From Actinomycetota bacterium (lineage in GTDB: Bacteria > Actinomycetota > Thermoleophilia > RBG-16-64-13), in contig JAHJSA010000023.1 in NCBI GenBank assembly GCA_018830645.1, forward strand, positions 7,482-71,481: a stretch of 64,000 bases of DNA. The letters are read 5' to 3'. The notes below the pieces were generated by a model, which was not told the DNA's origin, did no database searches, and saw nothing but the letters and a program-made list of their open reading frames with translations. The translations under genes and the position numbers were made by a program. Of this stretch, positions 22,708 to 54,887 are shown piece after piece (position 1 is the stretch's first letter; each line of letters starts with the position of its first letter).

Positions 22708-22717
22708 TCGGCTCTCC

Positions 22718-24244: not shown

Positions 24245-24253
24245 GGCAGACCT

Positions 24254-34158: not shown

Positions 34159-35639
34159 CAGTTTCCTCCTTGGTTCCGGGCCGGACGGCCCAGGTGTTTC
34201 GCGATGACCGCCTCAGCTTCCGGGGGCAACGGCGCTACAGAGTGCTTGGCGAGGATCCTTCGGGCAACGGCGAGCGCCCGAGCGTGGGCGTCCTCACCCC
34301 CGCGCTTCTCCCAGGCGCCCCGCATGCGACGGTCGATCACCTGAGCCTCCGACTGCTCGCGACGAGCCAGTTCCCGGGTATGCCTCTCGCGCAGGAAGTT
34401 GCCATCGGACCCTACTCTCAGAATGGATTCGAGACCGATGGAGGCGACATCGCTGCGGATGCCTTCGAGCACCCGCCGGTTCATGCGTGCGATCTCGTCA
34501 TCCATCACCATCTGACCGAAGTCGAAGGTCAGGCCTAATTCGAGCATCCCCATGCCATAGATCAGGTTGGCCCCTGCCAACGCTGGTAACAGACTGGTGA
34601 GGGTCTTCTCGTGGCCCGCCTGCACGTCGGGTAGTTTGCTGTCTGCCTAACCGCCGGCCACCCAGCAGGGCAGGTAGTAGAACTCACTCATCTCGGCGAC
34701 GGCGGCGGAGATGAGGGCGAGTTCGGGAGCTCCGACGGGCGCAGTGGCGTGGCGCAGGTCGAAGGTGGTGGTGCTGCTGCCGTAGATGACCGGAGCCCCG
34801 GGGCGGGTGAGTTGAGCGAGCGTAAGCGCCGAGAGCACCTCCGCGTTGTGGGTGACCATGGTGCCGGACAGGCTGATCGGACCGGTCGCCCCGGCCATGG
34901 CCATGGAGATGACGTTCGAGGCGATCCCGTGGCGCGCGCACCCCATCATGATCTCCGGGGTGGGCGAGTAGAGGGCCAGGGGACTCGTGGGGCAGGTGTC
35001 GATGGAGAATATGGGGCGCTCGCGCAAGGCTTCAGCCCCGCCGACCACCGCTGCCCCGATCTCGGCGAGTTCATCGATCTGCTCTCCGGTCTCGACGCCC
35101 GCGTGCACGTGCTTCGTGGTATTGCGGAGCGCCGCGACGAAGCCCTCCAGGTAGGCGCTCTCGGAGGGCACGTCGGTGGGCGTCACCGCCATCTCGAAGG
35201 TATCGCACATCTCGAGGGCGTCGCAGAGCCGAGCTATGCGGGCGAGATCGTCCAGGGTGGAGTCCCGGTGCTCCCCCGTCTCGAGATCGTAGACTTTGGT
35301 GCCCTCACCGAAGTTGGTGTAGCCCACCGAACGGCCGCCCATGAGGTAGTCGCGCTCGCCATCCCGCGAGGCCAGGAGGATCGTGCCCGGAGCCGACTCC
35401 AGTGCCTCTTCAACCACGTTCCGGGGGAAGCGGACAATCCGCGTGTGGGTGTCCACGACGCACCCTGCCCCGTCGAGGACATCGAGCGCCTCGTCCACCG
35501 GCACCTTCACACCGGCCGTCTCGAGAACGACCAGGGTGGCCTCATGGATCGCTTCCCGACCCGCGGCGCCCAACACATCGAAGCTGAGCCGCGGTACGCC
35601 CGCTCGCTCCTCATCCCTCAGCTTCTCTCTCCACCCCAT
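34158..35639 (-). CDS. mttB: Trimethylamine:corrinoid methyltransferase MttB, pyrrolysine-containing (in-frame UAG at 34647..34649)
   Basis: Track ORFs 34647..35687 and 34158..34625 share a frame across a single TAG: ...[51 protein letters not shown]; ~493 aa from ATG 35639 (RBS AAGGAAGG), Pyl at ~331 as in MttB. Confidence 0.9.
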
Positions 35640-35644
35640 ATGCC

Positions 35645-36169
35645 TCAGGCCTTCCTTTCCAGAGCGGGATCTTCGGGGACTTCCCACATATAGCTGAACT
35701 TCTCGTTCCCCAGGATGGTGAACACCTCGGTTGAGAGAATGCTCCCGCCCGGCGCGAGCGGGCCGCCGAGGAACTCAAGGAGCTCCTCGCTTCCTCGGAA
35801 CACGGCTTCCACCAGGAGGTTATAACGACCGGTGCAGTACCCCACCCAGCACACCCGGTTGAGTGCGGCGAAGGCGCGGGCGACCTCCCGCAGATCGCCT
35901 GCGACAACATTCACGCCGATCATGACGTTGATGGGATAGCCGGTGGCCGCAGGGTCCAGCAAACCCACGATCTGCATCACTCCGGTTTCGTGCAACCGTT
36001 CGATGCGTTTGCGCACCGTGGGCACGGACACGCCGGTGGCCCGCGCGATCTCCGCGTTCGGCAGGCGTCCGTCGCTCTGCAGGAGGGCGAGGATCTTGCG
36101 GTCCAGTGAATCAAGGTGCTCCGGACGCGGCTCGCTCCTCCGATGCTCGTCCACCAGACCCCCAGTCAA
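35645..36169 (-). CDS. Lrp/AsnC family transcriptional regulator
   Basis: N-terminal HTH (LDRKILALLQSDGRLPNAEIARATGVSVPTVRKRIERL) and C-terminal RAM ligand-binding domain; directly upstream of mttB. Confidence 0.8.
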   Translation of the reverse strand: MTGGLVDEHRRSEPRPEHLDSLDRKILALLQSDGRLPNAEIARATGVSVPTVRKRIERLHETGVMQIVGLLDPAATGYPINVMIGVNVVAGDLREVARAFAALNRVCWVGYCTGRYNLLVEAVFRGSEELLEFLGGPLAPGGSILSTEVFTILGNEKFSYMWEVPEDPALERKA

Positions 36170-40873: not shown

Positions 40874-42727
40874 TCACCGCGTCGCCCCTTCCAGGTCGAG
40901 GGCGGCCAGCTTGGCCTCGGTGGGCCGTCCGTGCGTGTCCCAGCCTCGAGCCTCGTAGTACTGGGGCAGGAGGATATCCAGGCGCGGCAGATTGCCCTTG
41001 CTCGCGCCCGCGGTGAAGGGGGTCTCGAGCATCCGCTTCGGGAGGGTGTCGTCGGCGGCGGTGAGTCCGGCGCCCAGGTTGAAGAGGCGTTCCTGGTTGA
41101 AGATGCGCTCACCGGCCGCCAGGAAGCCCGCTTCACCCCCGAACGAGAGGCCGGTGGCCTTCTCCATCAGGTCGATGAAGACGCGGACGTCGGGCATCCC
41201 GATCACGATGAAGTTACAGATGCCCGAGGAGTCGATCATGCAGTAGAAGTCCTGGATCTTCTTGGCTACCTCAGCCTTCCCCTCCACAGCGAAGCGGTCG
41301 AGGTTCTCGCCGGTCTCGACAATGCCCAGGAGCGAGATGCCGAAGAACTCCACGCAGTGTACCTCTTGGCGGATGTGGCACGCGCCCCGGTTGGACGTGG
41401 CATACCCGAGGGCGAAGCCCTGCCCCCCGCGTGGGTCGTAGTTCGGGAACTCCTGCTTCTTGACGGTCATGCTGAGCTCGGGGTGCCCGTAGCGCTCGGC
41501 CAGGCGATACGAGCCCTCTGCCAGACTGTCGCCGAAGCCTTCCCGGCGGGCGATCTTCTCCAGGAGCTCCACCACGGCCGCACCATCACCGAAACCGAGG
41601 GGCCCACCGCTGTCGGACTCGGGGACAAGCCCCCGCTCGCTCAACTCCATGGCGCAGGCGATGGTCACGCCCGCTGAGATGGTGTCGAGGCCCATTTCGT
41701 TGCAGATGTAGTTGCTCTTCATGATCGCTTCGACATCATCGACGCCACAGACGGCCCCAAGGGAACCCAGGGTCTCGTACTCGGGACCTTCACCTCGTCC
41801 TTTGAACGGCCCGCTCTTGACCTGCGTCACCCGGCCACAGGCCAAGGGGCAGCCGAAGCAGGCTTTGGTCTTACCGACGCCCTTCAGGTTGTAGCGGGAG
41901 ACGGCGGTGCCCCCGATGGCGGCCGCGCCCTCGAATGTGCCCTGTTGGAAGTTGCGGGTGGGCAGGAGGCCCACCTCGTCGGCAAATTCGACCACGTCTG
42001 AGGTGCCGTACTCACCAACAGTGATTGACATGAAGGGGTCCTTGAACTCCTCGCGGGCGGCCCGCACCGCCGCCTGGAAGCCGGCCGGATCGGCCACCCT
42101 CACGCCGCCGCTGCCCCGCACAACGATGGCCTTCAGTCTCTTGGAACCCATGACGGCCCCCACACCTGAGCGCCCGGCTGCCCGGCCGCCGTCGTTCATG
42201 ACGGCCGCGAAGCGCACAAGGTTCTCGCCGGCCGGTCCGATGCAGGCCACCTTGGCCTCCTCGTCGGTCTCGGCTAGGAGCAGCTCGGTAGTATCGCTCA
42301 CCGCCCGACCCCAGAGGTCGCCCGCATCTCGGATCTCCACCCGGTCGTCGTCGATCCACAGGTAGACCGGTCTCGGCGAGGTGTTCTCGACGATGATCGC
42401 GTCGTAGCCCGCGAACTTGAGCTCCGCGCCGAAGTAGCCACCCGAGTTGGAGTTGGCGATGCCACCGGTGAGCGGCGACTTAGTGACCAGGGTGTATCGA
42501 CTCGAGGCCGGGGCCGACGTAGCCGTCAAGGGGCCGGTCGCGAACACCAGCTTGTTGTGGGGACCCAGCGGGTCGACCGTCGGGTCGACCTCGCTGAGAA
42601 GGTAGTGGATGCCGAGCCCGCGCCCCCCGATGGCCCGTTCGAGTACGGCGGTGTCTATGGACTCCGTGCGGGTGGTGCCCGCAGCCAGGTCGACCCGAAG
42701 TAGGCGTCCGATCCAGCCTGCCATCAT
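40874..42727 (-). CDS. Aldehyde:ferredoxin oxidoreductase (tungsten/molybdopterin AOR family)
   Basis: ~617 aa; AOR N-terminal domain (MAGWIGRLLRVDLAAGT...) and C-terminal pterin/4Fe-4S domains; ATG overlaps the stop of the upstream ferredoxin gene. Confidence 0.85.
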   Translation of the reverse strand: MMAGWIGRLLRVDLAAGTTRTESIDTAVLERAIGGRGLGIHYLLSEVDPTVDPLGPHNKLVFATGPLTATSAPASSRYTLVTKSPLTGGIANSNSGGYFGAELKFAGYDAIIVENTSPRPVYLWIDDDRVEIRDAGDLWGRAVSDTTELLLAETDEEAKVACIGPAGENLVRFAAVMNDGGRAAGRSGVGAVMGSKRLKAIVVRGSGGVRVADPAGFQAAVRAAREEFKDPFMSITVGEYGTSDVVEFADEVGLLPTRNFQQGTFEGAAAIGGTAVSRYNLKGVGKTKACFGCPLACGRVTQVKSGPFKGRGEGPEYETLGSLGAVCGVDDVEAIMKSNYICNEMGLDTISAGVTIACAMELSERGLVPESDSGGPLGFGDGAAVVELLEKIARREGFGDSLAEGSYRLAERYGHPELSMTVKKQEFPNYDPRGGQGFALGYATSNRGACHIRQEVHCVEFFGISLLGIVETGENLDRFAVEGKAEVAKKIQDFYCMIDSSGICNFIVIGMPDVRVFIDLMEKATGLSFGGEAGFLAAGERIFNQERLFNLGAGLTAADDTLPKRMLETPFTAGASKGNLPRLDILLPQYYEARGWDTHGRPTEAKLAALDLEGATR

Positions 42728-43203
42728 CGGTTCCCCCCTTCGAGGCGCATCTTGTCGGCCATTGCCCTGCGCTTGGCCCGCGGCGAGGAGTCCACAGCCG
42801 CGAAGTCGAGGGCTTTGGTAGCACACGCTTCGACACAGGCCGGGTGGCCGCCGCAAAGATCACACTTCCGCACACACCCCCGGCCGTCGTCCTCCACCGC
42901 GCCGAAGGGACAGGCGAGCGTGCACATGTGGCAGCCCACACAACGATCCCGGTTGAGGGAGACCACGTAGCTGCCATCGATCTCGGCGGCATGCATGGCT
43001 CCCGAGGGACAGACGGCCGCACAGGCCGGCTCGGCGCACTGCAGGCACACCTGCGGCAGAAAGAAGGCATCCTCGGTGAAGATGCTCACCCTCACCGCAG
43101 ACTTGCGCGGGTTGAACTCCTCGTAGTGGGCGAAGGAACACGCCGTCTCGCAGGAGCGACACCCCGTGCACCTGTCGACATCGATCACCAGCTGGTTCCC
43201 CAT
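42724..43203 (-). CDS. 4Fe-4S ferredoxin-type protein (multi-cluster; probable AOR electron-transfer subunit)
   Basis: Four Cys-x2-Cys-x2-Cys-x3-Cys-Pro-like motifs (CTGCRSCETAC, CLQCAEPACAAVCP, CVGCHMCTLACP, CDLCGGHPACVEAC). Confidence 0.7.
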   Translation of the reverse strand: MGNQLVIDVDRCTGCRSCETACSFAHYEEFNPRKSAVRVSIFTEDAFFLPQVCLQCAEPACAAVCPSGAMHAAEIDGSYVVSLNRDRCVGCHMCTLACPFGAVEDDGRGCVRKCDLCGGHPACVEACATKALDFAAVDSSPRAKRRAMADKMRLEGGNR

Positions 43204-43269
43204 CTCGAACCCCCTCCTCGCGGCATTATGATGAGATCGCACCGGCGCGCCGGCCGCGCATCATGTTGA

Positions 43270-43563
43270 CTAACCTCCCGAAAGCGGCATGAAGAGCCTG
43301 ATGCGATCACCCTCCCGCACCGAGTCGGCCGGCAGCGAATTCCGCCCATTGACGGTGACGAGCACCCTCATTCCGGCGGGTAGCCCACAGACGTCGGTAA
43401 GCACCGCAGCCACCGTACTCCCTGCGGGCACGCTCACCGCGACGGCACGACCGGTCTCGATCCGCGGACGGAACCGTTCGAGACCGAGGTGCAATTGCAC
43501 GGTCACGGCGATCGGCGAAACGGTGCGGTCGGCGCCCGCGCCACGTTCTCCACCTACTTCCAT
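43270..43563 (-). CDS. MoaD/ThiS-like ubiquitin-fold sulfur-carrier protein
   Basis: ~98 aa ending in the diglycine ...RLFMPLSGG; position next to AOR and ferredoxin is typical for cofactor-maturation partners. Confidence 0.45.
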   Translation of the reverse strand: MEVGGERGAGADRTVSPIAVTVQLHLGLERFRPRIETGRAVAVSVPAGSTVAAVLTDVCGLPAGMRVLVTVNGRNSLPADSVREGDRIRLFMPLSGG

Positions 43564-43741
43564 CCGAAGACCTTCTGTCCGTGACGACGTCTGCGTCTGA
43601 TGTTGTTGTCGTCGACCCACATGCTGACCTCATCGTCGATGAGCACCGCATCGAACGCGACCCCAATCCCGATTCGCGTCTTGTTCCCGCGATTATCCGC
43701 ACGGGTAAGAACGAGTGCATCGTATCGAAATTTATACTCCG

Positions 43742-43833: not shown

Positions 43834-44499
43834 GTGGAACTCGGCCTCGATCAGGACACCAGAGTTCCCCGTCGCGGCCGGCAGCGTCTTCCACGCGTAC
43901 CCTCCCGCAGTCCCGCGAGCTCCTTGCCCCCGACGGCGCGCAAGATCCTCATCGCCGCCAAGCACCTGCTCACGACCCGGGGCCTAAGCGCCCTCACCCT
44001 AGAGACCGTGACCAACAGAGCAGGCGTCAACAAGGCTCTGGTGCGCTACTACTTCGGGAGCAAAGCTGGATTGATCGAAGCCGTGGTCGACGAGATCGTT
44101 CTGGACGAGTGCGCGTCCATGGCGAACGACCTCTCAGCCAACACGACCGTGGCCGAACGCGTGCGGAGTTTCGTGGCGAGTGTCCGCCGAATGGCTACGA
44201 ACGTCGACGGCTACCGGGCCTTCTTCGACGTACTCCCTCACGGCGCCCGCGATCGCGGCCTCCGCCGAAGGCTCACGTACCTCTACGACCTCTGGTACGA
44301 GTGGAACCTGGAGTGGCTCGGCCTCGACGACGCGACCGCGGATGACGAACGCGCCGCTGGATTGCGGGCGATGGGCGCCTTCACCGCCGCCGTCATCGAC
44401 GGTATCGCCGTGCAGGCCTTGATCCACGGCGCCGAGTACGACGTCGAGCCGACGCTCGACATCCTGGAGCGCTGCCTGCTCCGCATGCTGGAGGAGTAG
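43834..44499 (+). CDS. TetR/AcrR family transcriptional regulator
   Basis: HTH region KILIAAKHLLTTRGLSALTLETVTNRAGVNKALVRYYFGSKAGL; divergent from the methylamine island. Confidence 0.75.
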   Translation: MELGLDQDTRVPRRGRQRLPRVPSRSPASSLPPTARKILIAAKHLLTTRGLSALTLETVTNRAGVNKALVRYYFGSKAGLIEAVVDEIVLDECASMANDLSANTTVAERVRSFVASVRRMATNVDGYRAFFDVLPHGARDRGLRRRLTYLYDLWYEWNLEWLGLDDATADDERAAGLRAMGAFTAAVIDGIAVQALIHGAEYDVEPTLDILERCLLRMLEE

Positions 44500-44602
44500 C
44501 CGCAGGGCGATCGAAACGACGGAAGCCGGTCCGCCCCCGAAGGGACGGACCGGCCTCGTTCAAGCCACCAACGCAGTGGCTCGCGCCCGCTCTGGGTTCC
44601 GC

Positions 44603-46063
44603 CTACTCCTCCGCCGAGACGATGATCTTCTTCATCGCCTCGTGGACCGCGGGATCGAGCGGCATCGCCTCGTGGGTCTTCAGCAGATCGGCGGCCATAG
44701 CCTCGGCACGCGTCGCCACGTCGGTCCCACCTTTCTTCGTCCATGCTCCCCGCGTACGCCTGTCGAAGAGCTTCACCTTCGACTGCTCCGAGGGCATGTA
44801 CTTCAGCGTGTGCTTCTCCTTCAGGAAGTTCTTGCCCGAACCGATCTTGTGGATCACCTCGGTGCCGATGGTGTCGTTGTCCACGGGTGAACCGCGCACC
44901 ACGCGCTTGACCATCGAGGCGATCTCGTTGTCGATCAGGAGCTGTCCGTAGGAGAACGTGACACCCAGTTCGAGCATCCCCATACCGTATATCAGGTTGG
45001 ACCCTGCCAACGCTGGTAGCAGACTGGTGATGGTTTTCTCGTGCCCGGCCTGAGCGTCGATCACTTTGCTATCCGCCTAACCACCGGCAACGTAGCTCGG
45101 CAGATTGTAGTAGTTGGACAGTTCGGCCACCGCCGCGGAGATCATGCCCAGCTCTGGCGCCCCTACGGGGGCCGTGGCGTAGGTCATGTCGAACATGGTG
45201 GTGGAGCTTCCGTACATGGCGGGAGCGCCCTTGCTGGTGAGCTGCGCCAGCGTGAGGCCGGCCAGCACCTCTGCGTTGTGGGTGACCAGCGTGCCCGATA
45301 CCGACACCGGGCTCGATGCGCCCGACATGGCCATGCTGAGCACGTTGATGGGGCATCCCCAGCGCGCGCTCTCCATGATGACCTCGCAGGTCACCGTGTG
45401 GAGCATCAGGGGGCTGGTGGGGCACACCAGGGTGGAGACCAGCGGCCTCTCCCGGAGCTCCCTGTCGCCGCCCGCGATGAGCGCGGCCATCTCGAACATC
45501 TTGCGGGCGTTGGCACCCGAAGAGACGTCGATGTGATGCACGTGCTTACTCGTGTTCAGGAACGCGGCTTCGAGCATGTGCAGGTCGTATGAGGCGTCGG
45601 GCATGTCGCGAGCGACGACGGCCGTCGAGTACACGTCGACGTTCTCCATCGCGTCGCAGGCGAGCGCCGTCCTTCCCATGTCTTCCTTTGTGGTCTCGTT
45701 CACTTCGCCCGTCTCGGGATCGGTGACCATGATCCCGCAGCCGAAGTTGGTGTAGCCCACGTGCTTGCCGCCCATCCAGTAGTCGTACCTGGGATCGCGC
45801 GCCGCGAGCAGGATGCTGCTCGGGCACGACGCCAGGGCTTCCTCGACCACGTAGGCCGGGAACTTCACGATCTTGGTGGCACGATCGACGATGCAGCCGC
45901 CCTCTTCGAGAACGTCCACTGCTTCCTCGAGATGAACCTCGACCCCGGTCAGCCGGAGGACTTCCAGCGTGGCGTCGTGGATGGCGTCGAGCTGACTGCT
46001 CGAGTACATCCTGAGACCCCAGCCTTGGTATTCCTCCGTACTGGCTCTCGGTCCTCGGATCAT
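44603..46063 (-). CDS. mttB: Trimethylamine:corrinoid methyltransferase MttB (second copy), pyrrolysine-containing (in-frame UAG at 45077..45079)
   Basis: Track ORFs 45077..46165 and 44603..45064 are in frame across one TAG: ...[54 protein letters not shown]; paralogous to the 34158..35639 copy. Confidence 0.9.
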
Positions 46064-46106
46064 GTGCGCACCTCCTTTCTCTCGCTCGTAGTGACAGGCC
46101 GTCTCA

Positions 46107-46772
46107 CTAGGAGACGGCTTCCTTGGCCTTCGCCACCGTCTCGGTGGCGCTCTCGGCGTAGACATCCGCGCCGATCTTGTCGGCCCAGTGCTGGGTGGCG
46201 GCGGCGCCGCCCACCATCGTCTTCACATTCCCCCTGATGCCCGCCTCGGTGAGGGCCGCCTCCAACTTGGCCTGATTCACCATGGTGGTGGTCATGAGGG
46301 CCGAGCTACCCACCAGATCGGCGTTGGTCTCCTGCGCCATGCGGACGAATTCGCCGATGGCCACGTCGCGGCCAAGGTCATGCACCTCGAACCCGGACAC
46401 GCCGAGAAGCGTGCCCACGATCGTCTTTCCGATGTCGTGCACGTCACCTTCGATCGTGCCGATGACCACCGTGCCGAGCTTCTCGACCGCCGATGCTTCG
46501 GGCAGGGCCTCTTCCAGTATTGCAAGCGCGGCCGTCATGCAGTCCGCGGCGATGATCATCTCGGGAAGGCTCATCTCTTCCGCCTCGAACATCTCCCCGG
46601 CCCGGCGCATGCCCACCGTGAACCCTTCCTGCAGGAGCCGGACTGGATCTAGACCGCTCTCCAACGCATCCTTGGCCAGCTGTACCGCACCGTCCTCATC
46701 GATGTCGAGGACGAGCTCCTGCGCCTTCTGGATGGCTTCCTCCATGCTAAGTGTCGCCATGTACCGGTTCAC
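46107..46772 (-). CDS. mttC: Corrinoid (cobalamin-binding) protein, MttC-like
   Basis: B12-binding domain with DxHxxG (GDVHDIGK) and SxL / GG motifs; N-terminal corrinoid cap helix; immediately upstream of mttB. Confidence 0.85.
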   Translation of the reverse strand: MNRYMATLSMEEAIQKAQELVLDIDEDGAVQLAKDALESGLDPVRLLQEGFTVGMRRAGEMFEAEEMSLPEMIIAADCMTAALAILEEALPEASAVEKLGTVVIGTIEGDVHDIGKTIVGTLLGVSGFEVHDLGRDVAIGEFVRMAQETNADLVGSSALMTTTMVNQAKLEAALTEAGIRGNVKTMVGGAAATQHWADKIGADVYAESATETVAKAKEAVS

Positions 46773-46874: not shown

Positions 46875-46991
46875 TCAGAGCTTCTTGACGAACGTACGAG
46901 CTTGATAGAGCGCCAGAGCCGGCAGAGTCACGAACAGGATGATCGCAACCGCCGGACCCGCTCCGAAAGCCCAGAACTCACTCACGTTCAC
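46875..46991 (-). CDS. Small hydrophobic peptide (38 aa, single predicted TM)
   Basis: GTG start 6 nt after a GGAGGTGG RBS that directly follows the upstream gene's TAA; translation (V/M)NVSEFWAFGAGPAVAIILFVTLPALALYQARTFVKKL; below the length cutoff of the ORF track. Confidence 0.4.
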   Translation of the reverse strand: MNVSEFWAFGAGPAVAIILFVTLPALALYQARTFVKKL

Positions 46992-47005
46992 GTAAGACCA
47001 CCTCC

Positions 47006-47284
47006 TTAGACCAGGAGCCCAGTATCGCTCATGCGCTGACGGCCGAACTCGGTAAGGCTGTACTTGAGCAGTATCTTCTCCTTCCCGAAGCTCTTGCTCG
47101 GATCAATGGTCTCCTCGATGGCATCGATGAGCCCCCCCGAGTAGAGGTCCGCAAGGGTGACCCGGTTGTTGCCGTACCAGTACTCGCCCTCGAGACCGCC
47201 GTACTCGGCGTTCAGTAACTCAGCGAGTTCGTAGTCCCACTTGGCTCCCTCGGTCTGCAGGATCTGCAGCAGGCGCCCTTTCAT
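47006..47284 (-). CDS. Hypothetical small soluble protein (~92 aa)
   Basis: ORF from the internal ATG (MKGRLLQILQTEGAKWDYELAELL...); no recognisable motif; lies between the membrane protein gene and the small peptide. Confidence 0.4.
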   Translation of the reverse strand: MKGRLLQILQTEGAKWDYELAELLNAEYGGLEGEYWYGNNRVTLADLYSGGLIDAIEETIDPSKSFGKEKILLKYSLTEFGRQRMSDTGLLV

Positions 47285-47315
47285 GTGTAGCTTCGCCACG
47301 TATCCCCCTCTCAGC

Positions 47316-48395
47316 TTAGCTGCCCGCAGTGTCCGAGTTCTCCGATGAGCCCCCAAGATGCGAGACCGATCGGATGACCTCAAGAACATCGCGGCGCTCG
47401 GTGTACATGATCACTCCACCGGCGATGACGATCAGGCCGCCGATCAGGAAGTTCAGGTCAGGCATGGTCAAGGTGAAGATGCCCAGGAAGATTATGGCGA
47501 ACACCCCGTAGAAATCGGCGATCGCCTGCCCGCGACCCACACCGATGAGCGGGAACGACTTATACCACGATACGTAGCAGAAGCCGAATGTCAGCCCGGC
47601 CAACAGCAACCACACGAGGTTCGTGAAGTGAAGCGCATCGACGAGCATCGTGATCGCATCGCCGCCGGTGAGGATCGCCGTGACCGGCAAGATGAGAACT
47701 ACCCAATAGAGAACCTCGGCCGTGAAGCGGATCGTGAGCCCCACGTCTGGGTCTACTACATCGAGCGCCCGACCGGCGAACGCGCCTTCGATACCCCAGC
47801 CCGTCGCAGCCATGATCCCGCCCACGTAGCCGAGCCACGAGCCGGTGCCCGTACCGGTCATCTCAGCGAGGATCCCCGGTGCGTAGACGACCAGACCTCC
47901 GCCAACGATCACCAGGATGCCGAGTGCCGCCCGGGTGGTTATCTTCTCTGCATACCAGACCCGGGCCAAGCCGGCGCCCACAATCGGATAGAGCAGGGCG
48001 GCAACAGCCGCGAAGACACCGCCAACGTAGCCGATGGCAAGAAAGCTACCGAAGATCGCCATGGGACCGCCGAAGACCGCTCCTGCGAAGAACCACTTCG
48101 AGACCTTGCGCATCTGCCGAATAGTCCTACCGTATTCCCGCATCTTGCCCAACACCGCAACCCAGACGTACATCGCGAGCAGCACAGCGATGGCGTTGAG
48201 CGCGGTGATAACCGCTGCCGCCATCAGGAAGTCCCTGGTTGTATCGGCGATGGCGTTGAACGGCGCTTCGTACCAGATCGCGGTGCCGGGCACGTACCAG
48301 GCACCCCACAGCACAGCGCACCACAGCGCCCACACGAACCCCCACCGCACCGACCGCTCGGTGTGATCCCTTCGTGCCTTCGTCAGATCCGACAT
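47316..48395 (-). CDS. Integral membrane protein (~10 TM), putative permease, possibly a methylamine permease analogue
   Basis: 359 aa, highly hydrophobic with repeated Gly-rich TM segments; inserted between pylC and the mttC-mttB pair; family not assignable from sequence alone. Confidence 0.55.
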   Translation of the reverse strand: MSDLTKARRDHTERSVRWGFVWALWCAVLWGAWYVPGTAIWYEAPFNAIADTTRDFLMAAAVITALNAIAVLLAMYVWVAVLGKMREYGRTIRQMRKVSKWFFAGAVFGGPMAIFGSFLAIGYVGGVFAAVAALLYPIVGAGLARVWYAEKITTRAALGILVIVGGGLVVYAPGILAEMTGTGTGSWLGYVGGIMAATGWGIEGAFAGRALDVVDPDVGLTIRFTAEVLYWVVLILPVTAILTGGDAITMLVDALHFTNLVWLLLAGLTFGFCYVSWYKSFPLIGVGRGQAIADFYGVFAIIFLGIFTLTMPDLNFLIGGLIVIAGGVIMYTERRDVLEVIRSVSHLGGSSENSDTAGS

Positions 48396-48412
48396 CTATC
48401 GACCCCCTTTCG

Positions 48413-48434
48413 TGCGATGCCTAGCAGCATCGCA
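48413..48434 (-). terminator. Perfect 8-bp GC-rich hairpin (TGCGATGC-n6-GCATCGCA) ~18 nt upstream of the membrane-protein start and downstream of pylC
   Basis: Inverted repeat read directly; no U-tract, so a terminator or RNA-stability/attenuator role cannot be distinguished. Confidence 0.3.
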
Positions 48435-48716
48435 GCCTCTAGAAACCCACCGACTCCAGATCCTCAGTGCCGATCCCCCCTCTCTTCGAGCCTCGGTGTA
48501 CTTGTATGGACAGGTACGCGAGAATGTCCGCGCCCCGGACGACCGCCTCATGATACCTGGACGCACCAACAATACGCAACAGACTCGCACCCATCCTGAA
48601 AGCCGCAGTGACCCCTGTCTCGTGCCTAGACAGGCTTGAGACACCACGGCCGCGACCCCCTGAGCAATCCGCTCGTGTGGGTGGCGCACCGAGCGCGGCA
48701 ACAGCCCGGGGGTGGG

Positions 48717-49904
48717 TCAACGAGCACCTCCCCCTATCGACCCAGTCCGTACGCTCACCGGGTCAGGCGTCGCCGACAACCCGGAGTCGCGCGCGAGCCG
48801 GCGAACGGCCTCCTCCGCGCGGGCACGTGCGTCTACCGCGTCGACGCCTACGCAGATCATGGTGGCCGACCAGGTCTCTCGCCCCTCGGCACGGTCCGTG
48901 AGCACCTCGTCCGCGCCGAAGGCGTCTTCCAGGAGCCGCAGCGGCCCCGCCGTGCTCATCACGTGTTCCCCGAGAACCTCCAGGCTGCCCATGGAGGCGT
49001 GCACGTGTTGGTAGCAGACTCCACGACCGCCCGGGGGCAGTGAGCCGGGGAGACCGGCGCCACGTGCGATATCCGCGACCAACGCCACCACATTGAGTCC
49101 CGTGGAGTGCAGTACCGCGGTGGGCGTCTGGCTGGGTAGCCGCGCGTCGATCTCGATCAGCCGCGGAACGTCGCCGTCCAACATGACCTCGACGTCCATG
49201 AGACCCACGAGCCCCATGCGTTCGGCAAGACGCACCCCGGCAGCGGACATGGCCTCGAGAGACCCTCCGGCCGCGGTCACCGGAGCGACCACGCGCTTGC
49301 AGTCGTACACGTGGTCGAACTCGAGCAACGTGGGCACCAGAGGCAGCGCCCCATCCGGCGTCCCGATCACCTCCAACGACAGCGAAGGCCCGTCGACGTA
49401 CTGCTGCACGACGACTTCATGACCCGCGGTCTCGAGCCTCTCTCGAGCCGCTTCGAGGTCGCTCTCGGTCCAGACGACGCTCACCCCCTCGCTGCCGCTC
49501 GACCCGCTCGGCTTGACCACCGCGGGGAAGCCGCACTCGGGCCACGGTAGGGGCCGCGGAACATCCAGTTCGGCGAAGAGACGGTCGGAACGAAGCTTCG
49601 AGCAGGAGAGCTCGTAGGAAGGAAGGTGGAAGGCCAGAGGTACACCCCAGGACGGCACGACTTCGCTCAGCCACCGCAGGGTCTTCAGGTCTTCGCAGGC
49701 GGGCAGGATCACGTCGCACGCTCCGAGCACCACCCGCGCTCGTTTCACGTCGGCCGTGACGTCGAACACGTGGCTCTCTGTTGCCAATCCCGAGGCGGGC
49801 GTGGCGGGCGCCCTATCGACGAGGACAACCTCGAATCCAGCCTTGATGCCCAAATAGACCGCCTCGGTCCCTTGTAGACGTCCTCCCACGACGCCCAGGC
49901 GCAT
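48717..49904 (-). CDS. pylC: Pyrrolysine biosynthesis ATP-grasp ligase PylC (3-methylornithine--L-lysine ligase)
   Basis: Start VVGGRLQGTEAVYLGIKAGFEVVLVDR... and the IEIDARLPSQTPT motif match PylC; ATG overlaps the pylB TGA. Confidence 0.9.
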   Translation of the reverse strand: MRLGVVGGRLQGTEAVYLGIKAGFEVVLVDRAPATPASGLATESHVFDVTADVKRARVVLGACDVILPACEDLKTLRWLSEVVPSWGVPLAFHLPSYELSCSKLRSDRLFAELDVPRPLPWPECGFPAVVKPSGSSGSEGVSVVWTESDLEAARERLETAGHEVVVQQYVDGPSLSLEVIGTPDGALPLVPTLLEFDHVYDCKRVVAPVTAAGGSLEAMSAAGVRLAERMGLVGLMDVEVMLDGDVPRLIEIDARLPSQTPTAVLHSTGLNVVALVADIARGAGLPGSLPPGGRGVCYQHVHASMGSLEVLGEHVMSTAGPLRLLEDAFGADEVLTDRAEGRETWSATMICVGVDAVDARARAEEAVRRLARDSGLSATPDPVSVRTGSIGGGAR

Positions 49905-51001
49905 CACCACTGGGCCTGCGCCCTCAACCCCGGAGCCTGCGTCCCGGCGAGCCAGCCTTCGTACTCCGGCAAGGAGGCCACCTTCAACCCGAGGGGAGCG
50001 AGATGCCGCTCCACTCCGGCCACGGTACGGAAGCCCTCATCGATGTCGAGCGTTGACTGTGAGACTCCGGCCAGCCCGCTTGCGGGAGGGATGATGGATG
50101 TGACGACGTTGGCGCCCGCACGCAGGCGGGCCTCCAGACCCCGAAGGCCGTCGATGTCGAGAGAGGCTGGGATCAGGCGATCGGGCATGGTGAGCCGCAT
50201 GGTGGCTAAGGTGACCATCTCGGCCAGCAGGGTGGGCGTGTCGAGGCCGCCCATAGGAGTGCCCTTCTGGGGGACGAAGCCCATCACCCGCACCTGCTGC
50301 ACACCCTGCGCCCTCATGGTGACGAGGGAGCGCGCCCGGTCGGCGGCCGTCTCGCCCACACCCAGAAGGATGCCGTCTTCAGCGTGTAGTCCAGCGCCCA
50401 GGGCCCGGCTCCTCGCGCCGACACGCGCCGCGAAATCCTGCCCCGGCCGAAGCTTGCGGAACAACTGCGGTGAGTGGGTCTCCTGGTAGCAGGCATACCA
50501 GTCGGCCCCCGCCTCGGCGAGCTGCCGCAGCACGGCATCCGGCACCACGCCCGGAGACACCATCACCGGCACCCCTGCCGCTCCTCGGACGTCCGCCACG
50601 AGTTCCACCAGATGGTCGAACCGGCCGGCGTCGTGGATCTCCGGGTCCTCCCCCAGGGTCAGATCCACGAGGTGCACGCCCGAGCCGGCCAAGCCGCAGG
50701 CTATCTCGACCACCTCAGCCGCGGTCTTGCGGTACCGGGGACTCGCGTCGTTGCCCTTGCGGTAGAAGCAGAACGTACAGCGATTGCGGCAATACGTCGA
50801 GAAGTAGACGAAACCGTATAGAAAGATCTTGCGCCCGAAGTAGCGCTCCCTCAGTCTCTGCGCGGTGTCGAAGATGAGAGCGGCCTCATCCGGCTCCTGC
50901 ACTTCGAGCAGCGTCTCGATCTCGGGCACCCGGAGGCGTTCCCCCGCGAGCGCGCGCTCGACGATCGCTTCCACTTCCCGGCGTCGTGGCCGTCCGGTCA
51001 C
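49904..51001 (-). CDS. pylB: Pyrrolysine biosynthesis radical SAM enzyme PylB (3-methylornithine synthase)
   Basis: FVYFSTYCRNRCTFCFY radical SAM cluster motif; RLIPASLDIDGL...AGANVVTSIIPP matches PylB; GTG start at 51001 (residue 179 of the track ORF) preceded by a G-rich RBS. Confidence 0.9.
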   Translation of the reverse strand: MTGRPRRREVEAIVERALAGERLRVPEIETLLEVQEPDEAALIFDTAQRLRERYFGRKIFLYGFVYFSTYCRNRCTFCFYRKGNDASPRYRKTAAEVVEIACGLAGSGVHLVDLTLGEDPEIHDAGRFDHLVELVADVRGAAGVPVMVSPGVVPDAVLRQLAEAGADWYACYQETHSPQLFRKLRPGQDFAARVGARSRALGAGLHAEDGILLGVGETAADRARSLVTMRAQGVQQVRVMGFVPQKGTPMGGLDTPTLLAEMVTLATMRLTMPDRLIPASLDIDGLRGLEARLRAGANVVTSIIPPASGLAGVSQSTLDIDEGFRTVAGVERHLAPLGLKVASLPEYEGWLAGTQAPGLRAQAQW

Positions 51002-51012
51002 CTGCGAACCCC

Positions 51013-51900
51013 CTATTCCTCCGCGACCGGATGCGATCCCGGCCGGGTGCCTTGTACGTTGAGGCGCGCCCCGTCGAGGTACACGAGACTCCTCCCTACC
51101 GGGTGGATACGAGACCCACCCGTCTGCATCATGGCTAGACGCTCGAGGCCGAACCCCCACCCGGCCCACGGACCGTTGACGCCCCACTGCTCGTCGAGTG
51201 GGTGCGGTCCGACGACGCCTGAGGCCACCTCGATGCCGCGCACCTCCACATCGAACGTCGCGCCATATACGCCGGAATCGGTCTCGACGATCTTGTATTG
51301 CAGGCCCAGGGGCCTCATGGCGACATCGGCCAGCATCCGCAGGCGATCGGCGGGGTCGCCGCTCGGCTCGAACTCCACAAGGTTGAGCATGGTGAACTCC
51401 GAGAGGTGGTTCGAGCCCTTCGACTCCTTGCGGAAACAGGGTCCCACTTCGAAGATGCTCACGGGGGGCGGCCATAGCCGTTGGAGGTGACTGAGCAGGT
51501 AGTAGAGGTTCGGTGCCAGCATCGGGCGCAGGCATCGGTCGGTGTCGACCCAGTACACCTGGCGCCAGAGCGGGTGTACTTCACCGATCCCCATCTTCGC
51601 CAGGGCGCCCTTGCTCATCATGAGCGGCGTGGCCACCTCGACGAAACCATCCGCCACCAGCGCCGCGACCAAGACCGACTCCACCGTGCGCAGCACCGGG
51701 CGTCGCCTCTCGGTGCGCAGAGAGTCGAGCCGATCGACGTTCGCCTGGCTGAGTTCCCGATGGTTCCCCTCGTAGCGGGCGTCGCGCTCCTCAGCCGAGT
51801 CGAACGTGTCGGCCAGCGCGGCATCGTCAAGCCCGATCTCGGCTAAGCGCTGCCTCTGCTGCGGCGAGAATCCGAGTGCGATGTCTCCCTGGCCTATCAC
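51013..51900 (-). CDS. pylS: Pyrrolysyl-tRNA synthetase, C-terminal catalytic subunit (PylSc)
   Basis: Class II aaRS motifs conserved with PylS: CLRPMLAPNLY, FEVGPCFRKES, EFTMLNL, GPHPLDEQWG, GFGLERL; GTG start overlaps the pylSn TGA (GTGA). Confidence 0.9.
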   Translation of the reverse strand: MIGQGDIALGFSPQQRQRLAEIGLDDAALADTFDSAEERDARYEGNHRELSQANVDRLDSLRTERRRPVLRTVESVLVAALVADGFVEVATPLMMSKGALAKMGIGEVHPLWRQVYWVDTDRCLRPMLAPNLYYLLSHLQRLWPPPVSIFEVGPCFRKESKGSNHLSEFTMLNLVEFEPSGDPADRLRMLADVAMRPLGLQYKIVETDSGVYGATFDVEVRGIEVASGVVGPHPLDEQWGVNGPWAGWGFGLERLAMMQTGGSRIHPVGRSLVYLDGARLNVQGTRPGSHPVAEE

Positions 51901-52262
51901 ACGAACGAGGTGCTCTCGAACTTCTCGAGCTTCCAGGATGGTATACGGCACCGCGGACACGGCTCGTCGTAGATCTTGTTGCGCAGATGACGGGCGACCC
52001 GACTGTTCCGGGAGTTCCGCATGCGGATGTCATGCCCGCAGTGCGTCTGCAACTCCACGAACCCGCCCCTGAGCTTCACCGAACGGACGCCATGCAACAG
52101 GCCGGTCTTCGACGGCCACAGCTTCACCTTCTCGATCACCCCGTAGGGGGCGGCATGCCGCCGCACCGTGCGCTTCTTCGCGCCGGGGATAGGAGCCAAG
52201 ACCCAGTCGGGCAGCTTCCCGCCTGTCCCAACGTCTCCGTTCGTGGAGCCGACCACGTCCAC
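51897..52262 (-). CDS. pylSn: Pyrrolysyl-tRNA synthetase N-terminal tRNA-binding domain protein (PylSn)
   Basis: 121 aa; LQTHCGHDIRMRNSRNSRVARHLRNKIYDEPCPRCRI closely parallels the Zn-binding region of the Methanosarcina PylS N-terminal domain; GTG start 45 nt downstream of pylT. Confidence 0.85.
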   Translation of the reverse strand: MDVVGSTNGDVGTGGKLPDWVLAPIPGAKKRTVRRHAAPYGVIEKVKLWPSKTGLLHGVRSVKLRGGFVELQTHCGHDIRMRNSRNSRVARHLRNKIYDEPCPRCRIPSWKLEKFESTSFV

Positions 52263-52307: not shown

Positions 52308-52379
52308 TGGAGGAGAGTCCGGGAGTCCAACCCGGCTACGAAGATTTAGAGTCTCCGCGGTCATGCCGACCAACCCTCC
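52308..52379 (-). tRNA. pylT: tRNA-Pyl (CUA anticodon) gene pylT
   Basis: Minus-strand 72-nt sequence GGAGGGTTGGTCGGCATGACCGCGGAGACTCTAAATCTTCGTAGCCGGGTTGGACTCCCGGACTCTCCTCCA folds with a 7-bp acceptor stem, single U8, a 4-bp D stem with 5-nt D loop, a 6-bp anticodon stem, loop CU-CUA-AA, a 3-nt variable loop and a 5-bp T stem. These are the hallmark atypical features of tRNA-Pyl. Confidence 0.85.
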
Positions 52380-52457: not shown

Positions 52458-53486
52458 TTAGACCGCCGCCTCTTCCGCGGCCTCCACCATGGCCCTCAGG
52501 TTCTCGGTCTCCGCCGAAGGCGGCACCGAGCAGCCGGGAGCGATCATGTCGTAGCCATCGGCCAGAGCCTTACGCACGTCGTTCTTCACGTCCTCGGGCG
52601 TGCCGGAGAAGAGCGTCACCACCGCGTCCACACCGCCGATCAGGGCGATGTGCCGGGGGAACCCGCGCAGCACCTCTTTGGCGGCGACGGCATCCACCGA
52701 CGGCTCCACGCTGATCGCGGTCACACCGGTCTCGGCGACCTCCGCCATGATCGGGTTGAGCTTCCCGCAGATGTGCATGATCGTGAGAACGCCGGGGAGG
52801 TTGGCGATCTGCTTCGCCTCATACGGCTGAGCGAGGTTGCGGAAGATGGGCGGGCTGATCACGTCGATCGAGGCCATCATGTCTTCGATGACGATGATGT
52901 CCGCACCCGCGTCCACAAGGGCTTTGCCCAGCATGGTGCCGGCCTGCTCGGCCACTTCCATGAGGGGCACCAGGCTCTCCGGCTTCTTGAAACTCGCCTT
53001 GAGTGCGTCGGTGATGCCGATCAGATTGGCCACGATCGAGAAGGGGCCGACGATGTTGCCCATCACCGCGACATCGTCGCCAACGGCTTCCTTCATCAGC
53101 CGCACGGCCTCGATCAATTCAGGCACGCGTCCGCGGGTGAGGAAGTCGTCGGGAAGAGCGATCTCGTCCCCGGCGTGGAAGGCGTGCACGTCGATACGCG
53201 GGATACCCTCGCGCCCGGCGTACTTGACGGTGCAGCCCAGAGCCTCGCTCTCGACGGTCTGGCAGTACGGGGCACGCACAGCGTCGAAGCCGAGTACGGA
53301 GTGGGCCGCCAGAGCCAGTTTGGCCATCGACTCGGCCTTCTGGTGGGCCTCCGGCCATTCCGCTCCACACGCGTCCATCTGCGCATAGGTCGCCGTCTGG
53401 TTGGCCGAGAAGACCGGTGGACGGTCCACGGGCAAACCGGCAAGCGCTGCTAGTACACGTTCCTTCGAAGTCATCACACCTCTCAC
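52458..53486 (-). CDS. Uroporphyrinogen decarboxylase (URO-D) family methylcorrinoid methyltransferase (MtbA/MtaA/MtqA-like)
   Basis: 342 aa URO-D fold typical of the methylcobamide:CoM / methylcorrinoid:tetrahydrofolate methyltransferases that partner with corrinoid proteins; lies between pylT and mtbB. Confidence 0.8.
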   Translation of the reverse strand: MRGVMTSKERVLAALAGLPVDRPPVFSANQTATYAQMDACGAEWPEAHQKAESMAKLALAAHSVLGFDAVRAPYCQTVESEALGCTVKYAGREGIPRIDVHAFHAGDEIALPDDFLTRGRVPELIEAVRLMKEAVGDDVAVMGNIVGPFSIVANLIGITDALKASFKKPESLVPLMEVAEQAGTMLGKALVDAGADIIVIEDMMASIDVISPPIFRNLAQPYEAKQIANLPGVLTIMHICGKLNPIMAEVAETGVTAISVEPSVDAVAAKEVLRGFPRHIALIGGVDAVVTLFSGTPEDVKNDVRKALADGYDMIAPGCSVPPSAETENLRAMVEAAEEAAV

Positions 53487-54887
53487 CTATCCCATCTTCG
53501 CTTTCAGTCTGTCCACACTGTTGATACTGATACCGAGCAATTCTGCGATACGGATCTTAGCCTCTATCCCCTTGGCGCATCCGGGCACTGAGGTGATCAC
53601 ACCTATGTCGAGGTCTTCGCGCATCTCCCGCATCACCGTGACCTCGGAGAGGTCGGCGACGCTGATCTTCAGCTTGTCGGCCACGTAGGCTTTGGCTTCC
53701 GGTAGGCGCATCCTGCGCGCGAGCTGCATCCGAGCGACCAGGTCTCCGGCCGTACGGATGCCGCCCATACCAGCGGCCACCCCGTGGGCGATGGGCATCC
53801 CGTAGGGATCGCCCACACCCACCTATAATCCGTCGACGCGGGCGATCTCGACCATCGCGACCGAGGCCCGCGAGACACTGTCGATAGGCGGGGTCTCGAA
53901 CACCGGGGAGCCACCCACCCCCATGCCCATGTTCACGTGCACCGGGATGTTGGCCACCGCGGTGACCGCCTTGACGAAGGTGACGGCGCGGGCAAGGTTC
54001 CAGGCCATCGACTTGCTGGTGTTGGTGTTCACGACAGGTCCGAAGATGTCGCCTCCGGCCTTCTCGACGAGACCAACTTGGTGGTGCGGGTAGAGCCCGG
54101 CGAGACGCGTGCCGTCGTACTCGAGCTCGCCGTGGATACCGAGTACGAACTCCCCGGCCATGCCAACCTGGATCGCAAGATTCGGGTGTTTGGCCTTCAG
54201 CTGCTCGACTGCCTGAAGCGAGGCTTTGAAGTCCGCGTCGCCCGCCGCGCCCGTCGTATCGAAGTTCACGCCGTCGGCGCCCACCTCGGCCAGCTTGCCG
54301 CAGATGTAGACGATGTCGCGGGTCGCGTGCTCGACCGCCAGTTCCTGGGCCTCACGCGCCTCCTTGATCTTGCCCATCGGCAGGAGGTCGGAGGGGTTGC
54401 CGAACGGGCCGTCGGGCGCGTAGTAGGTGCCGAGGTTCGGCATGGCTCCGTAGAAGATGGGCACGATGGTGCTGAGCAGGATGTTCTCGAGCGCCTGCTG
54501 CTCCTGGGCGATGATCGGCTTGACCGGCTTCCAGGAGTAGTCCACATGCCCGAGTTCCATGGTATCGGCCGCGAAGGCCCGCTCGTGCACCTGCACGCCC
54601 TGCAACCGGCTCAGCGGGATACCGACCCCGCTGTTGCCTTGGTCGCCGTCGAGGCGCAACGTGCCGATGTCGTGCGTGAGTACGACCTCGTTCCCCGAGT
54701 CGACGCCCACTACGCGCGCATTGCTCTTGAAGAGGTCGAGCAGGAAGTCGATCTCGTCGTCTTTGAGGGGTGGGATGCGGCCGCGATCGGCTGCGTCTGC
54801 GGAGCCGGCGATCAGATCGGCCTTCAGCTCGTCAGCCGTCATATCGATCACGTGCCCGTCCCCCATCCGGGTCGGGTACTTCGTCAT
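53487..54887 (-). CDS. mtbB: Dimethylamine:corrinoid methyltransferase MtbB (second copy), pyrrolysine-containing (in-frame UAG at 53823..53825)
   Basis: Track ORFs 53823..54887 and 53487..53822 abut in frame across TAG: ...[33 protein letters not shown]; N-terminus [24 protein letters not shown] is MtbB-like. Confidence 0.9.

Follow-up and report, generated by a model that had tools for sequence, protein, structure and literature searches.

The DNA analysed here is a 64,000-nucleotide stretch, hereafter the window, of contig JAHJSA010000023.1 from the metagenome-assembled genome (MAG) GCA_018830645.1 of an Actinomycetota bacterium. Its GC content is 65%, and its housekeeping genes are bacterial (leuS_bact, uvrB, polA and an actinobacterial-type rpsA). 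Our subject is mttB2, the second of two copies of a predicted gene for a [trimethylamine--corrinoid protein] Co-methyltransferase, which lies at 44603..46063 on the minus strand together with a gene for a corrinoid protein. Read on the minus strand from 46063 to 44603, mttB2 forms a single frame of 487 codons including the terminal stop, giving a coding sequence of 486 codons. A Shine-Dalgarno sequence, GGAGG, was seen on inspection 7 nt 5' of the ATG (46071..46075, minus strand). The frame is interrupted by one internal stop, a TAG at 45077..45079 (codon 329, minus strand), and contains no frameshifts or further internal stops; the terminal stop is likewise TAG (44603..44605). The first-pass annotation of this DNA had described an in-frame UAG at this position and had named additional frame-disrupting mutations as the sign of a pseudogene. 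Minus-strand translation bears out the former, and the latter, when looked for, were absent. The junction that it had quoted (12 residues, UAG, 25 residues) is also present and matches the context of copy 1, whose own junction reads EFYYLPCWVAGG-[UAG] followed by 25 residues (TAG at 34647..34649). GC content at third codon positions (GC3) is 0.84 both 5' and 3' of the mttB2 TAG, as in genuine genes of the window. Public gene calls split mttB2 into a 328-aa open reading frame (ORF) and a separate 153-aa ORF; the deposited NCBI proteins from the source MAG include MBU2601199 and MBU2601208. As the TAG is the same in two independent assemblies of one population (L001 from ENA ERZ27247117 and L002 from Logan SRR6514730) and is conserved in five other MAGs, it is not an assembly error.

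Scored with the internal TAG masked, MttB2 matched the Pfam family MTTB (PF06253) at 306 bits and the NCBI equivalog model for the pyrrolysine (Pyl)-type enzyme, TIGR02369 'trimeth_pyl', at 708.3 bits (cutoff 525) over model positions 1-469 of 469. Alignment to Methanosarcina barkeri MttB (PDB 7XCL) gave 446 bits over residues 13-484. The first-pass annotation had proposed an alignment test as a check, and this one placed the UAG of codon 329 exactly against X in 7XCL (Pyl334) and against K in the 7XCM variant, at the homologous position of the pyrrolysine of the solved enzyme. Gly110, Met249 and Tyr364 of the M. barkeri enzyme are conserved in MttB2 as G108, M244 and Y359. Gly110 and Tyr364 have been described as 100% conserved residues that activate pyrrolysine, and Met249 as a gate (PMC9842639). 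These results, together with the ortholog, neighbourhood and pyl-gene data that follow, make it very probable on sequence grounds that mttB2 is functional and encodes a pyrrolysine-containing trimethylamine:corrinoid methyltransferase in an uncultured, high-GC, Thermoleophilia-like Actinomycetota bacterium.

One scan of species-representative genomes yielded five orthologous loci, L003-L007 (LH_M24, SKS1.bin6, SRP136066_co1_96, FR_37 and Soudan_30), from MAGs labelled Actinomycetes, Gaiellales, Thermoleophilia and Actinomycetota. Their mttB2 products are 86-95% identical. The TAG at codon 329 is kept in all five, and the frame runs to 491 codons in L007 and to 486 in the other four, with a terminal stop that varies between TAA, TGA and TAG. 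Across the six genomes, codons 330-486, which follow the TAG, evolve with a ratio of nonsynonymous to synonymous substitution rates (dN/dS) of 0.11-0.29 in 15 of 15 pairs, at pairwise dS of up to 1.5; the corresponding range for the N-terminal part is 0.05-0.16. Such in-frame purifying selection after a conserved TAG indicates that the segment beyond it is translated. Of the 120 closest homologs in the database, 84 stop precisely at the UAG column, which copy 1 shares, as expected of the same TAG cut by gene callers. The other 36 have no stop there: they show a sense residue (A, V, W, L, Q, T, H, I or P) or, in one sequence, an alignment gap.

The corrinoid protein gene, mttC2 (46107..46760, minus strand), lies 43 nt upstream of mttB2 and ends in tandem stops, TAG-TGA. 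MttC2 has B12-binding and B12-binding_2 domains, carries the DxHxxG motif as GDVHDIGK and scores 236 bits on TIGR02370 (cutoff 215). The gene had been placed at 46107..46772, preceding mttB2. An ORF with corrinoid domains and a TIGR02370 match is indeed found there, but its start probably lies 12 nt later: the longest ORF begins at GTG 46772, whereas the ATG at 46760, which gives 217 aa, is preceded by the Shine-Dalgarno sequence GAGGAGGTG, and the orthologs and public calls likewise begin MATL.... ATG 46760 is thus the most likely start. An exact-sequence database look-up of MttC2 from the GTG start returned no match because public calls start at the ATG. In all five orthologous loci mttC adjoins mttB, with MttC identities of 76-96%.

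The window also encodes most of a pyrrolysine system, 2-6 kb upstream of mttB2 and on the same (minus) strand. ARAGORN identified pylT, a tRNA-Pyl with anticodon CUA, at 52308..52379; L003, L004 and L007 have a tRNA-Pyl at the equivalent position, and the comparison shows one compensatory pair in the T stem. It is followed by pylSn, the small subunit of pyrrolysyl-tRNA synthetase (PylRS; 51897..52256; TIGR03912, 101.5 bits, cutoff 51; dN/dS 0.09 against L003), pylSc, the catalytic subunit (51013..51900; TIGR02367, 283.6 bits, cutoff 178; dN/dS 0.20), pylB, methylornithine synthase (49904..51001; TIGR03910, 438 bits, cutoff 348; dN/dS 0.11), and pylC, 3-methylornithine--lysine ligase (48717..49904; TIGR03909, 312 bits, cutoff 248; dN/dS 0.16). 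In most bacteria, as far as is known, pylSn is placed at the distal end of the cluster. Here it stands immediately 5' of pylSc with a 4-nt overlap, and this order has been described for archaeal split PylRS (PMC9630628). The gene order in relatives is mtbB-mtbA-pylT-pylSn-pylSc-pylB-pylC-(pylD)-permease-mttC-mttB. L006 has no pyl genes within 10 kb upstream of mttC-mttB, which is their place in L003, L004 and L007. The first-pass description of the locus as a Pyl-dependent trimethylamine methyltransferase with its cognate MttC therefore finds support in the profile matches, the UAG position, the catalytic residues, the TAG of the orthologs, the adjacency of mttC and the pyl genes.

MttB2 and the product of mttB1 (copy 1, at 34158..35687, minus strand; TAG 34647..34649; TIGR02369, 629 bits) had been called paralogous, and their identity had been proposed as a gauge of recent duplication versus independent acquisition. 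They are 55.5% identical over 454 residues and 53% identical in the N-terminal 327 columns. When the two were aligned with 122 other sequences (120 database homologs, the M. barkeri enzyme and the non-Pyl paralog of the window), 89 of these resembled copy 2 more closely than copy 1 does. In the neighbour-joining tree, copy 2 groups with about 15 close relatives, and the sister group of this clade consists of Trp variants; copy 1 has a long branch of its own. Searching with copy 1 returned its orthologs at 80-90% and a second tier at 62-66%, all truncated at the TAG, and one 466-kb LH_M24 contig bears orthologs of both copies. The level of identity and the separate ortholog clades confirm paralogy, make these old paralogs and exclude a recent duplication. 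On the sequences, both genes were present before these genomes diverged, whether as old paralogs or as genes acquired separately; ancient duplication and transfer are not separable.

The Trp-variant sister clade (P0001, P0002 and P0004) is 63-68% identical to MttB2 and carries a true Trp codon, TGG, at the pyrrolysine position; its loci include L015 6001..7509 and L016 469..1926. Like mttB2, these genes are full length and adjoin a corrinoid protein gene, and in L015 the same convergent TetR gene follows, then the 4Fe-4S and aldehyde:ferredoxin oxidoreductase (AOR) genes. Unlike at mttB2, the order is mttB then mttC, an ATP-binding cassette (ABC) transporter lies upstream, and the synonymous sites downstream are not conserved.

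Besides mttB2, four further methylamine methyltransferase genes in the window are interrupted by UAG, each at the canonical pyrrolysine position and all on the minus strand: mttB1, mtbB1 (32752..34158; TAG 33097..33099), mtbB2 (53487..54887; TAG 53823..53825; TIGR02368, 662 bits) and mtmB (57454..58878; TAG 58234..58236; Pfam MtmB, 719 bits). A corrinoid protein gene lies near each of mtbB1, mtbB2 and mtmB, and the window encodes three corrinoid proteins in addition to MttC2. An MtaA/MtbA-family methyltransferase is encoded at 52458..53474, and a permease of the window scores 873 bits on the trimethylamine N-oxide (TMAO)-permease model. Immediately downstream of mtbB1 and mttB1 lies a non-Pyl paralog of the MttB superfamily (31215..32708, minus strand), with Ala at the pyrrolysine column and a sub-cutoff score of 349 bits on TIGR02369. 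Stop usage in the 51 predicted genes of the window is TGA 23, TAG 22 and TAA 6, so TAG is not depleted. At 53474..53489 (minus strand), the terminal TAG of mtbB2 is in frame with the downstream MtaA/MtbA-like gene. As no stop lies between them, read-through would yield an MtbB-MtbA fusion. The same in-frame arrangement is present in L003 (2671..2690), and L004 has TGA.

Sequence conservation is unusual just after the mttB2 UAG. Codons 334-355, beginning five codons after the TAG, show the strongest synonymous-site conservation of the gene among the six orthologs: 13 of 17 codons for invariant residues are identical in all six, compared with 29% gene-wide (P = 6.6e-5; next best window P = 0.02). 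GC3 of this constrained stretch is ~0.66, and it includes the rare codons AGT, CTG, CTA, CCA, GCG, TTG and GCA. The stretch (44995..45061, minus strand) is near-identical in copy 1 (34565..34631, minus strand), with third-position identity of 0.80-0.85 versus 0.3-0.5 elsewhere. The Trp-codon sister genes use other, GC-rich codons for the same peptide, and two distant Pyl-type mttB genes lack the nucleotides of the stretch. Analogous scans of synonymous constraint were weak in mtbB (P=0.04) and gave P=1.6e-3 in mtmB, there from two sequences only.

The UAG and the following 97 nt (44980..45079, minus strand) also match the Rfam family RF02510, PYLIS_3 ('pyrrolysine insertion sequence mttB'), at 77.8 bits (gathering score 38), and the constrained stretch falls within this match. 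Matches to PYLIS_1, PYLIS_2 or PYLIS_3 start at each of the five TAGs of the window, those at mtbB1, mtbB2 and mtmB being to PYLIS_2 or PYLIS_1. As a control, we scored the Trp-codon homologs, which also passed PYLIS_3 (56-58 bits), so the match mostly reflects coding conservation. The model itself has few base pairs, several of which are non-canonical in the mttB2 match, and the paper behind the PYLIS family describes the mttB region as without common structure (PMC3639795). Since the Trp controls pass and the distant Pyl-type genes differ in nucleotides, we rejected the PYLIS_3 match as independent evidence of a signal. We take it as a confirmation of gene type, and the synonymous constraint as a lead only. 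UAG cannot simply be reassigned here, as TAG ends ~40% of the genes; the conserved low-GC3 sites might therefore be a lineage-specific recoding or pausing signal that favours pyrrolysine insertion over termination, although we consider this unlikely. If it were true, such a signal, combined with a pyl cluster shed of pylD, would make these Thermoleophilia a natural test case for context-dependent pyrrolysine decoding in bacteria.

Several observations weigh against a functional, pyrrolysine-containing trimethylamine methyltransferase. The organism is known as a MAG only, and Thr111 of M. barkeri MttB is replaced by Cys109 in MttB2. TAG is a common terminator (22 of 51 genes), ending among others mttB2 itself, mttC2 (as TAG-TGA), pylSc, mtbB2, mtbC and the TetR gene. 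With so many genes ending in TAG, pyrrolysine decoding must be conditional or compete with termination. A 136-nt segment that reaches from 6 nt 5' of the UAG to 127 nt beyond it does not fold better than its shuffles (z = 0.17), and the alignment fold of the six orthologs shows covariation at just 1 of 39 predicted pairs, a near-zero value that arises because the region hardly varies. A further point concerns pylD, which is required for the final step of pyrrolysine synthesis. It was not found in the 64-kb window, where tblastn with PylD of L004 and L007 gave no match at E<=1 and no ORF matches TIGR03911. Nor does it follow pylC in the closest relative, L003, where a solute symporter stands instead, or in L005; the more distant relatives L007 (TIGR03911, 210 bits) and L004 do have it there. 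At the regions compared (48396..48716 and 46875..48395 in the window; L003 7470..9218; L004 6266..7270; L007 6564..7412), differing permeases occur in this slot. A database search with PylD returned 54 matches, none of which was traced to this MAG; five candidate contigs all came from other samples.

If mttB2 were a pseudogene, a former mttB with a nonsense mutation, only a 328-residue fragment would be made. This could explain why public pipelines call the 328-aa and 153-aa ORFs separately, and it would agree with TAG being an ordinary terminator for 43% of window genes and with the failure to find pylD. However, the TAG coincides exactly with the catalytic pyrrolysine of the solved enzyme, six genomes have kept it despite saturated synonymous divergence, and the 157 codons downstream stay in frame under dN/dS of 0.11-0.29. 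Other lesions are absent from mttB2, and five genes of the window share the pattern. A pseudogene is thus extremely unlikely. We find it equally hard to credit a split enzyme, in which residues 1-328 and a 153-residue protein started at GTG 45064 assemble without pyrrolysine. An in-frame GTG does lie five codons 3' of the TAG and is used by gene callers, but it has no Shine-Dalgarno sequence upstream, the four codons between TAG and GTG (ADSK) show conservation at the protein level as far as Methanosarcina (SDAK), and the catalytic residue would be missing (PMC9842639). Given the conserved TAG and the in-frame purifying selection 3' of it in the orthologs, both readings were rejected.

The absence of pylD after pylC in the window, L003 and L005, though it is there in L004 and L007, together with the lack of PylD matches in the NCBI accession block of this MAG, would also fit a UAG that is read through without authentic pyrrolysine, by insertion of a precursor or analogue, by scavenging of pyrrolysine, or with an unrelated dehydrogenase performing the last step. 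Such a scenario is very unlikely in our view: the search for pylD covered 64 kb of a multi-megabase genome, the homolog search was limited by its word index, the order of pyl genes is visibly fluid in the group (L006 lacks them in the usual 10 kb), and purifying selection on pylB and pylC is sensible only with a completed pathway. As pylSn, pylSc, pylB and pylC show dN/dS of 0.09-0.20 against L003, the pathway is evidently still in use, and pylD is most likely encoded elsewhere in the genome. Another option, which we rate as highly improbable, leaves pyrrolysine in place and changes the substrate, with divergent Pyl-MttB paralogs sub-functionalised to different methylated amines. The two copies are just 55.5% identical, and the ortholog clade of each is old and separate; MttB2 has Cys in place of Thr111; and the MttB superfamily covers many substrate specificities, in its non-Pyl members. 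Yet both copies score above the cutoff of the equivalog model for the trimethylamine enzyme (708 and 629 bits), both keep the Pyl/Tyr/Gly catalytic set, and we know of no characterised Pyl-containing MttB enzyme that uses a substrate other than trimethylamine. A pyrrolysine-containing trimethylamine methyltransferase thus remains the reading that we prefer.

On its other side, mttB2 faces a gene for a TetR-family regulator with a possible BetI-type C-terminal domain (43834..44499, plus strand; TetR_N 43.5 bits, cutoff 24). The first-pass annotation had this gene divergent and 100 nt downstream. It does lie 103 nt from the mttB2 stop, but with the 3' ends of the two genes towards each other, the pair is convergent; the genes from which it diverges are the ThiS-like, 4Fe-4S and AOR genes. 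Its product scores below the cutoffs of the BetI models (52.9 versus a cutoff of 201, and 47 versus 118) and just below that of TetR_C_6 (26.2 versus 27), and so is a TetR-family member not assignable to BetI. The gene is kept beside mttB2 in L003 (86%) and beside the Trp variant in L015 (72%). No convincing palindrome was shared among the TetR upstream region, the pylC-EamA gap and the mttC2 upstream region, and scans for sigma-70 and terminator consensus sequences were at chance level. Folding of the 111-nt intergenic region between mttB2 and the TetR gene gave -63 kcal/mol (z = -3.4; 0 of 200 shuffles equal) with a 16-bp GC-rich hairpin at 44522..44557, which is probably a bidirectional terminator. 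The trio of AOR, 4Fe-4S and ThiS-like genes beside the TetR gene and mttB2 occupies 40874..43620 (minus strand). Other contigs that carry pylD have a comparable trio immediately 5' of pylB-pylC-pylD (L008, L009 from a Thermoleophilia MAG, and the P0155 contig).

Directly upstream of mttC2 lies a permease trio (46875..48395, minus strand) made up of an EamA-like permease (47316..48395; EamA, 32 bits), a 97-aa ORF (47006..47299) and a 38-aa ORF with a single transmembrane segment (46875..46991). The same trio stands beside mttC-mttB in an unrelated genome of 56% GC (L017 4881..6381), with identities of 63%, 45% and 50%, and it is possible that it forms a methylamine uptake module in the same transcription unit as mttC2. 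Just upstream of the EamA-like gene, at 48413..48434, is a perfect 8-nt inverted repeat, TGCGATGC-N6-GCATCGCA, a possible operator; no counterpart was found near the TetR gene. Elsewhere in the window, beside glnA, a run of genes at 21832..26844 (minus strand) encodes a fused HdrB/HdrC-like protein, a pair with glutamine-amidotransferase and glutamate-synthase domains, and an FwdC-like protein.

From these data we infer the following scheme, in which pyrrolysine insertion, substrate, methyl acceptor and co-transcription, like the presence of pylD elsewhere in the genome, are predictions. The UAG of codon 329 would be read by Pyl-tRNA(CUA) from the neighbouring pylT, charged by the split PylSn and PylSc, to give a 486-residue protein; some termination at this UAG would be expected as a by-product. 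Pyl329, aided by Tyr359 and the carbonyl of Gly108, would bind and activate trimethylamine, and one methyl group would pass to the Co(I) corrinoid of MttC2, whose gene is probably co-transcribed with mttB2. The MtaA/MtbA-family methyltransferase (52458..53474) would most likely hand the methyl group to a carrier, presumably folate; coenzyme M is not expected, since the host is a bacterium. Dimethylamine and monomethylamine would be handled by the products of the mtbB and mtmB genes of the same island.

Overall, five UAG-containing genes together with pylT, pylSn, pylSc, pylB and pylC, all within ~28 kb, would make up a complete kit for the demethylation of mono-, di- and trimethylamine, and the locus is a well-supported case of genetic-code expansion beyond the usual Firmicutes, Deltaproteobacteria and methanogen hosts. 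The bacterium appears to be another in which TAG serves both as a frequent terminator and as a sense codon, which bears on the balance between pyrrolysine insertion and termination. As the annotation of this MAG and most of its relatives is cut at the TAG, methylamine use by the group is invisible to standard pipelines.

Pyl-type mttB genes are textbook material in methanogens. Firmicutes and Deltaproteobacteria have them as well, again cut short in public annotation (PMC7593587), and a 2022 survey reported PylRS in 'two Actinobacteria' (PMC9630628). PylD has already been named by NCBI in Thermoleophilia MAGs, and our literature search found no paper describing methylamine and Pyl genes in Thermoleophilia. 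The kind of gene that mttB2 represents is thus well known, and nothing here is new in kind; noteworthy locally are the five-gene UAG set, the pyl cluster without pylD, the heavy use of TAG for termination and the Trp-variant sister clade.

Compared with the known systems, MttB2 resembles M. barkeri MttB (7XCL/7XCM/7XCN) in its full-length alignment, with ~46% identity in the N-terminal 327 columns, in the position of pyrrolysine and in its DxHxxG corrinoid partner. It differs in having a bacterial host, Cys in place of Thr111, a PylRS split into PylSn and PylSc, and a genome stretch in which TAG is not depleted as terminator. The non-Pyl MttB superfamily, represented by Desulfitobacterium hafniense MtgB (PDB 2QNE/9YCE), belongs to the same fold family (224 bits), but its members have no UAG or pyrrolysine and use quaternary-amine substrates, and MttB2 does not belong to them. 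The orthologous loci L003-L007 share the TAG and the mttC-mttB pair, and L003, L004 and L007 also the mtbB-mtbA-pylT-pylSn-pylSc-pylB-pylC neighbourhood; unlike the window, L004 and L007 have pylD after pylC, and the permeases between pylC and mttC are different. Like the bacterial Pyl-type mttB loci of Bilophila wadsworthia (PMC7593587) and of Acetohalobium arabaticum and Desulfitobacterium (cited there and in PMC9630628), the locus has a TAG at the conserved site, split pylSn and pylSc, and a truncated annotation. In contrast to those loci, it belongs to the phylum Actinomycetota, it has pyl and methyltransferase genes in direct linkage, pylSn precedes and overlaps pylSc, and the cluster contains no pylD. 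Whereas Bilophila has mttB only, the window carries the full mtmB/mtbB/mttB set of five UAG genes.

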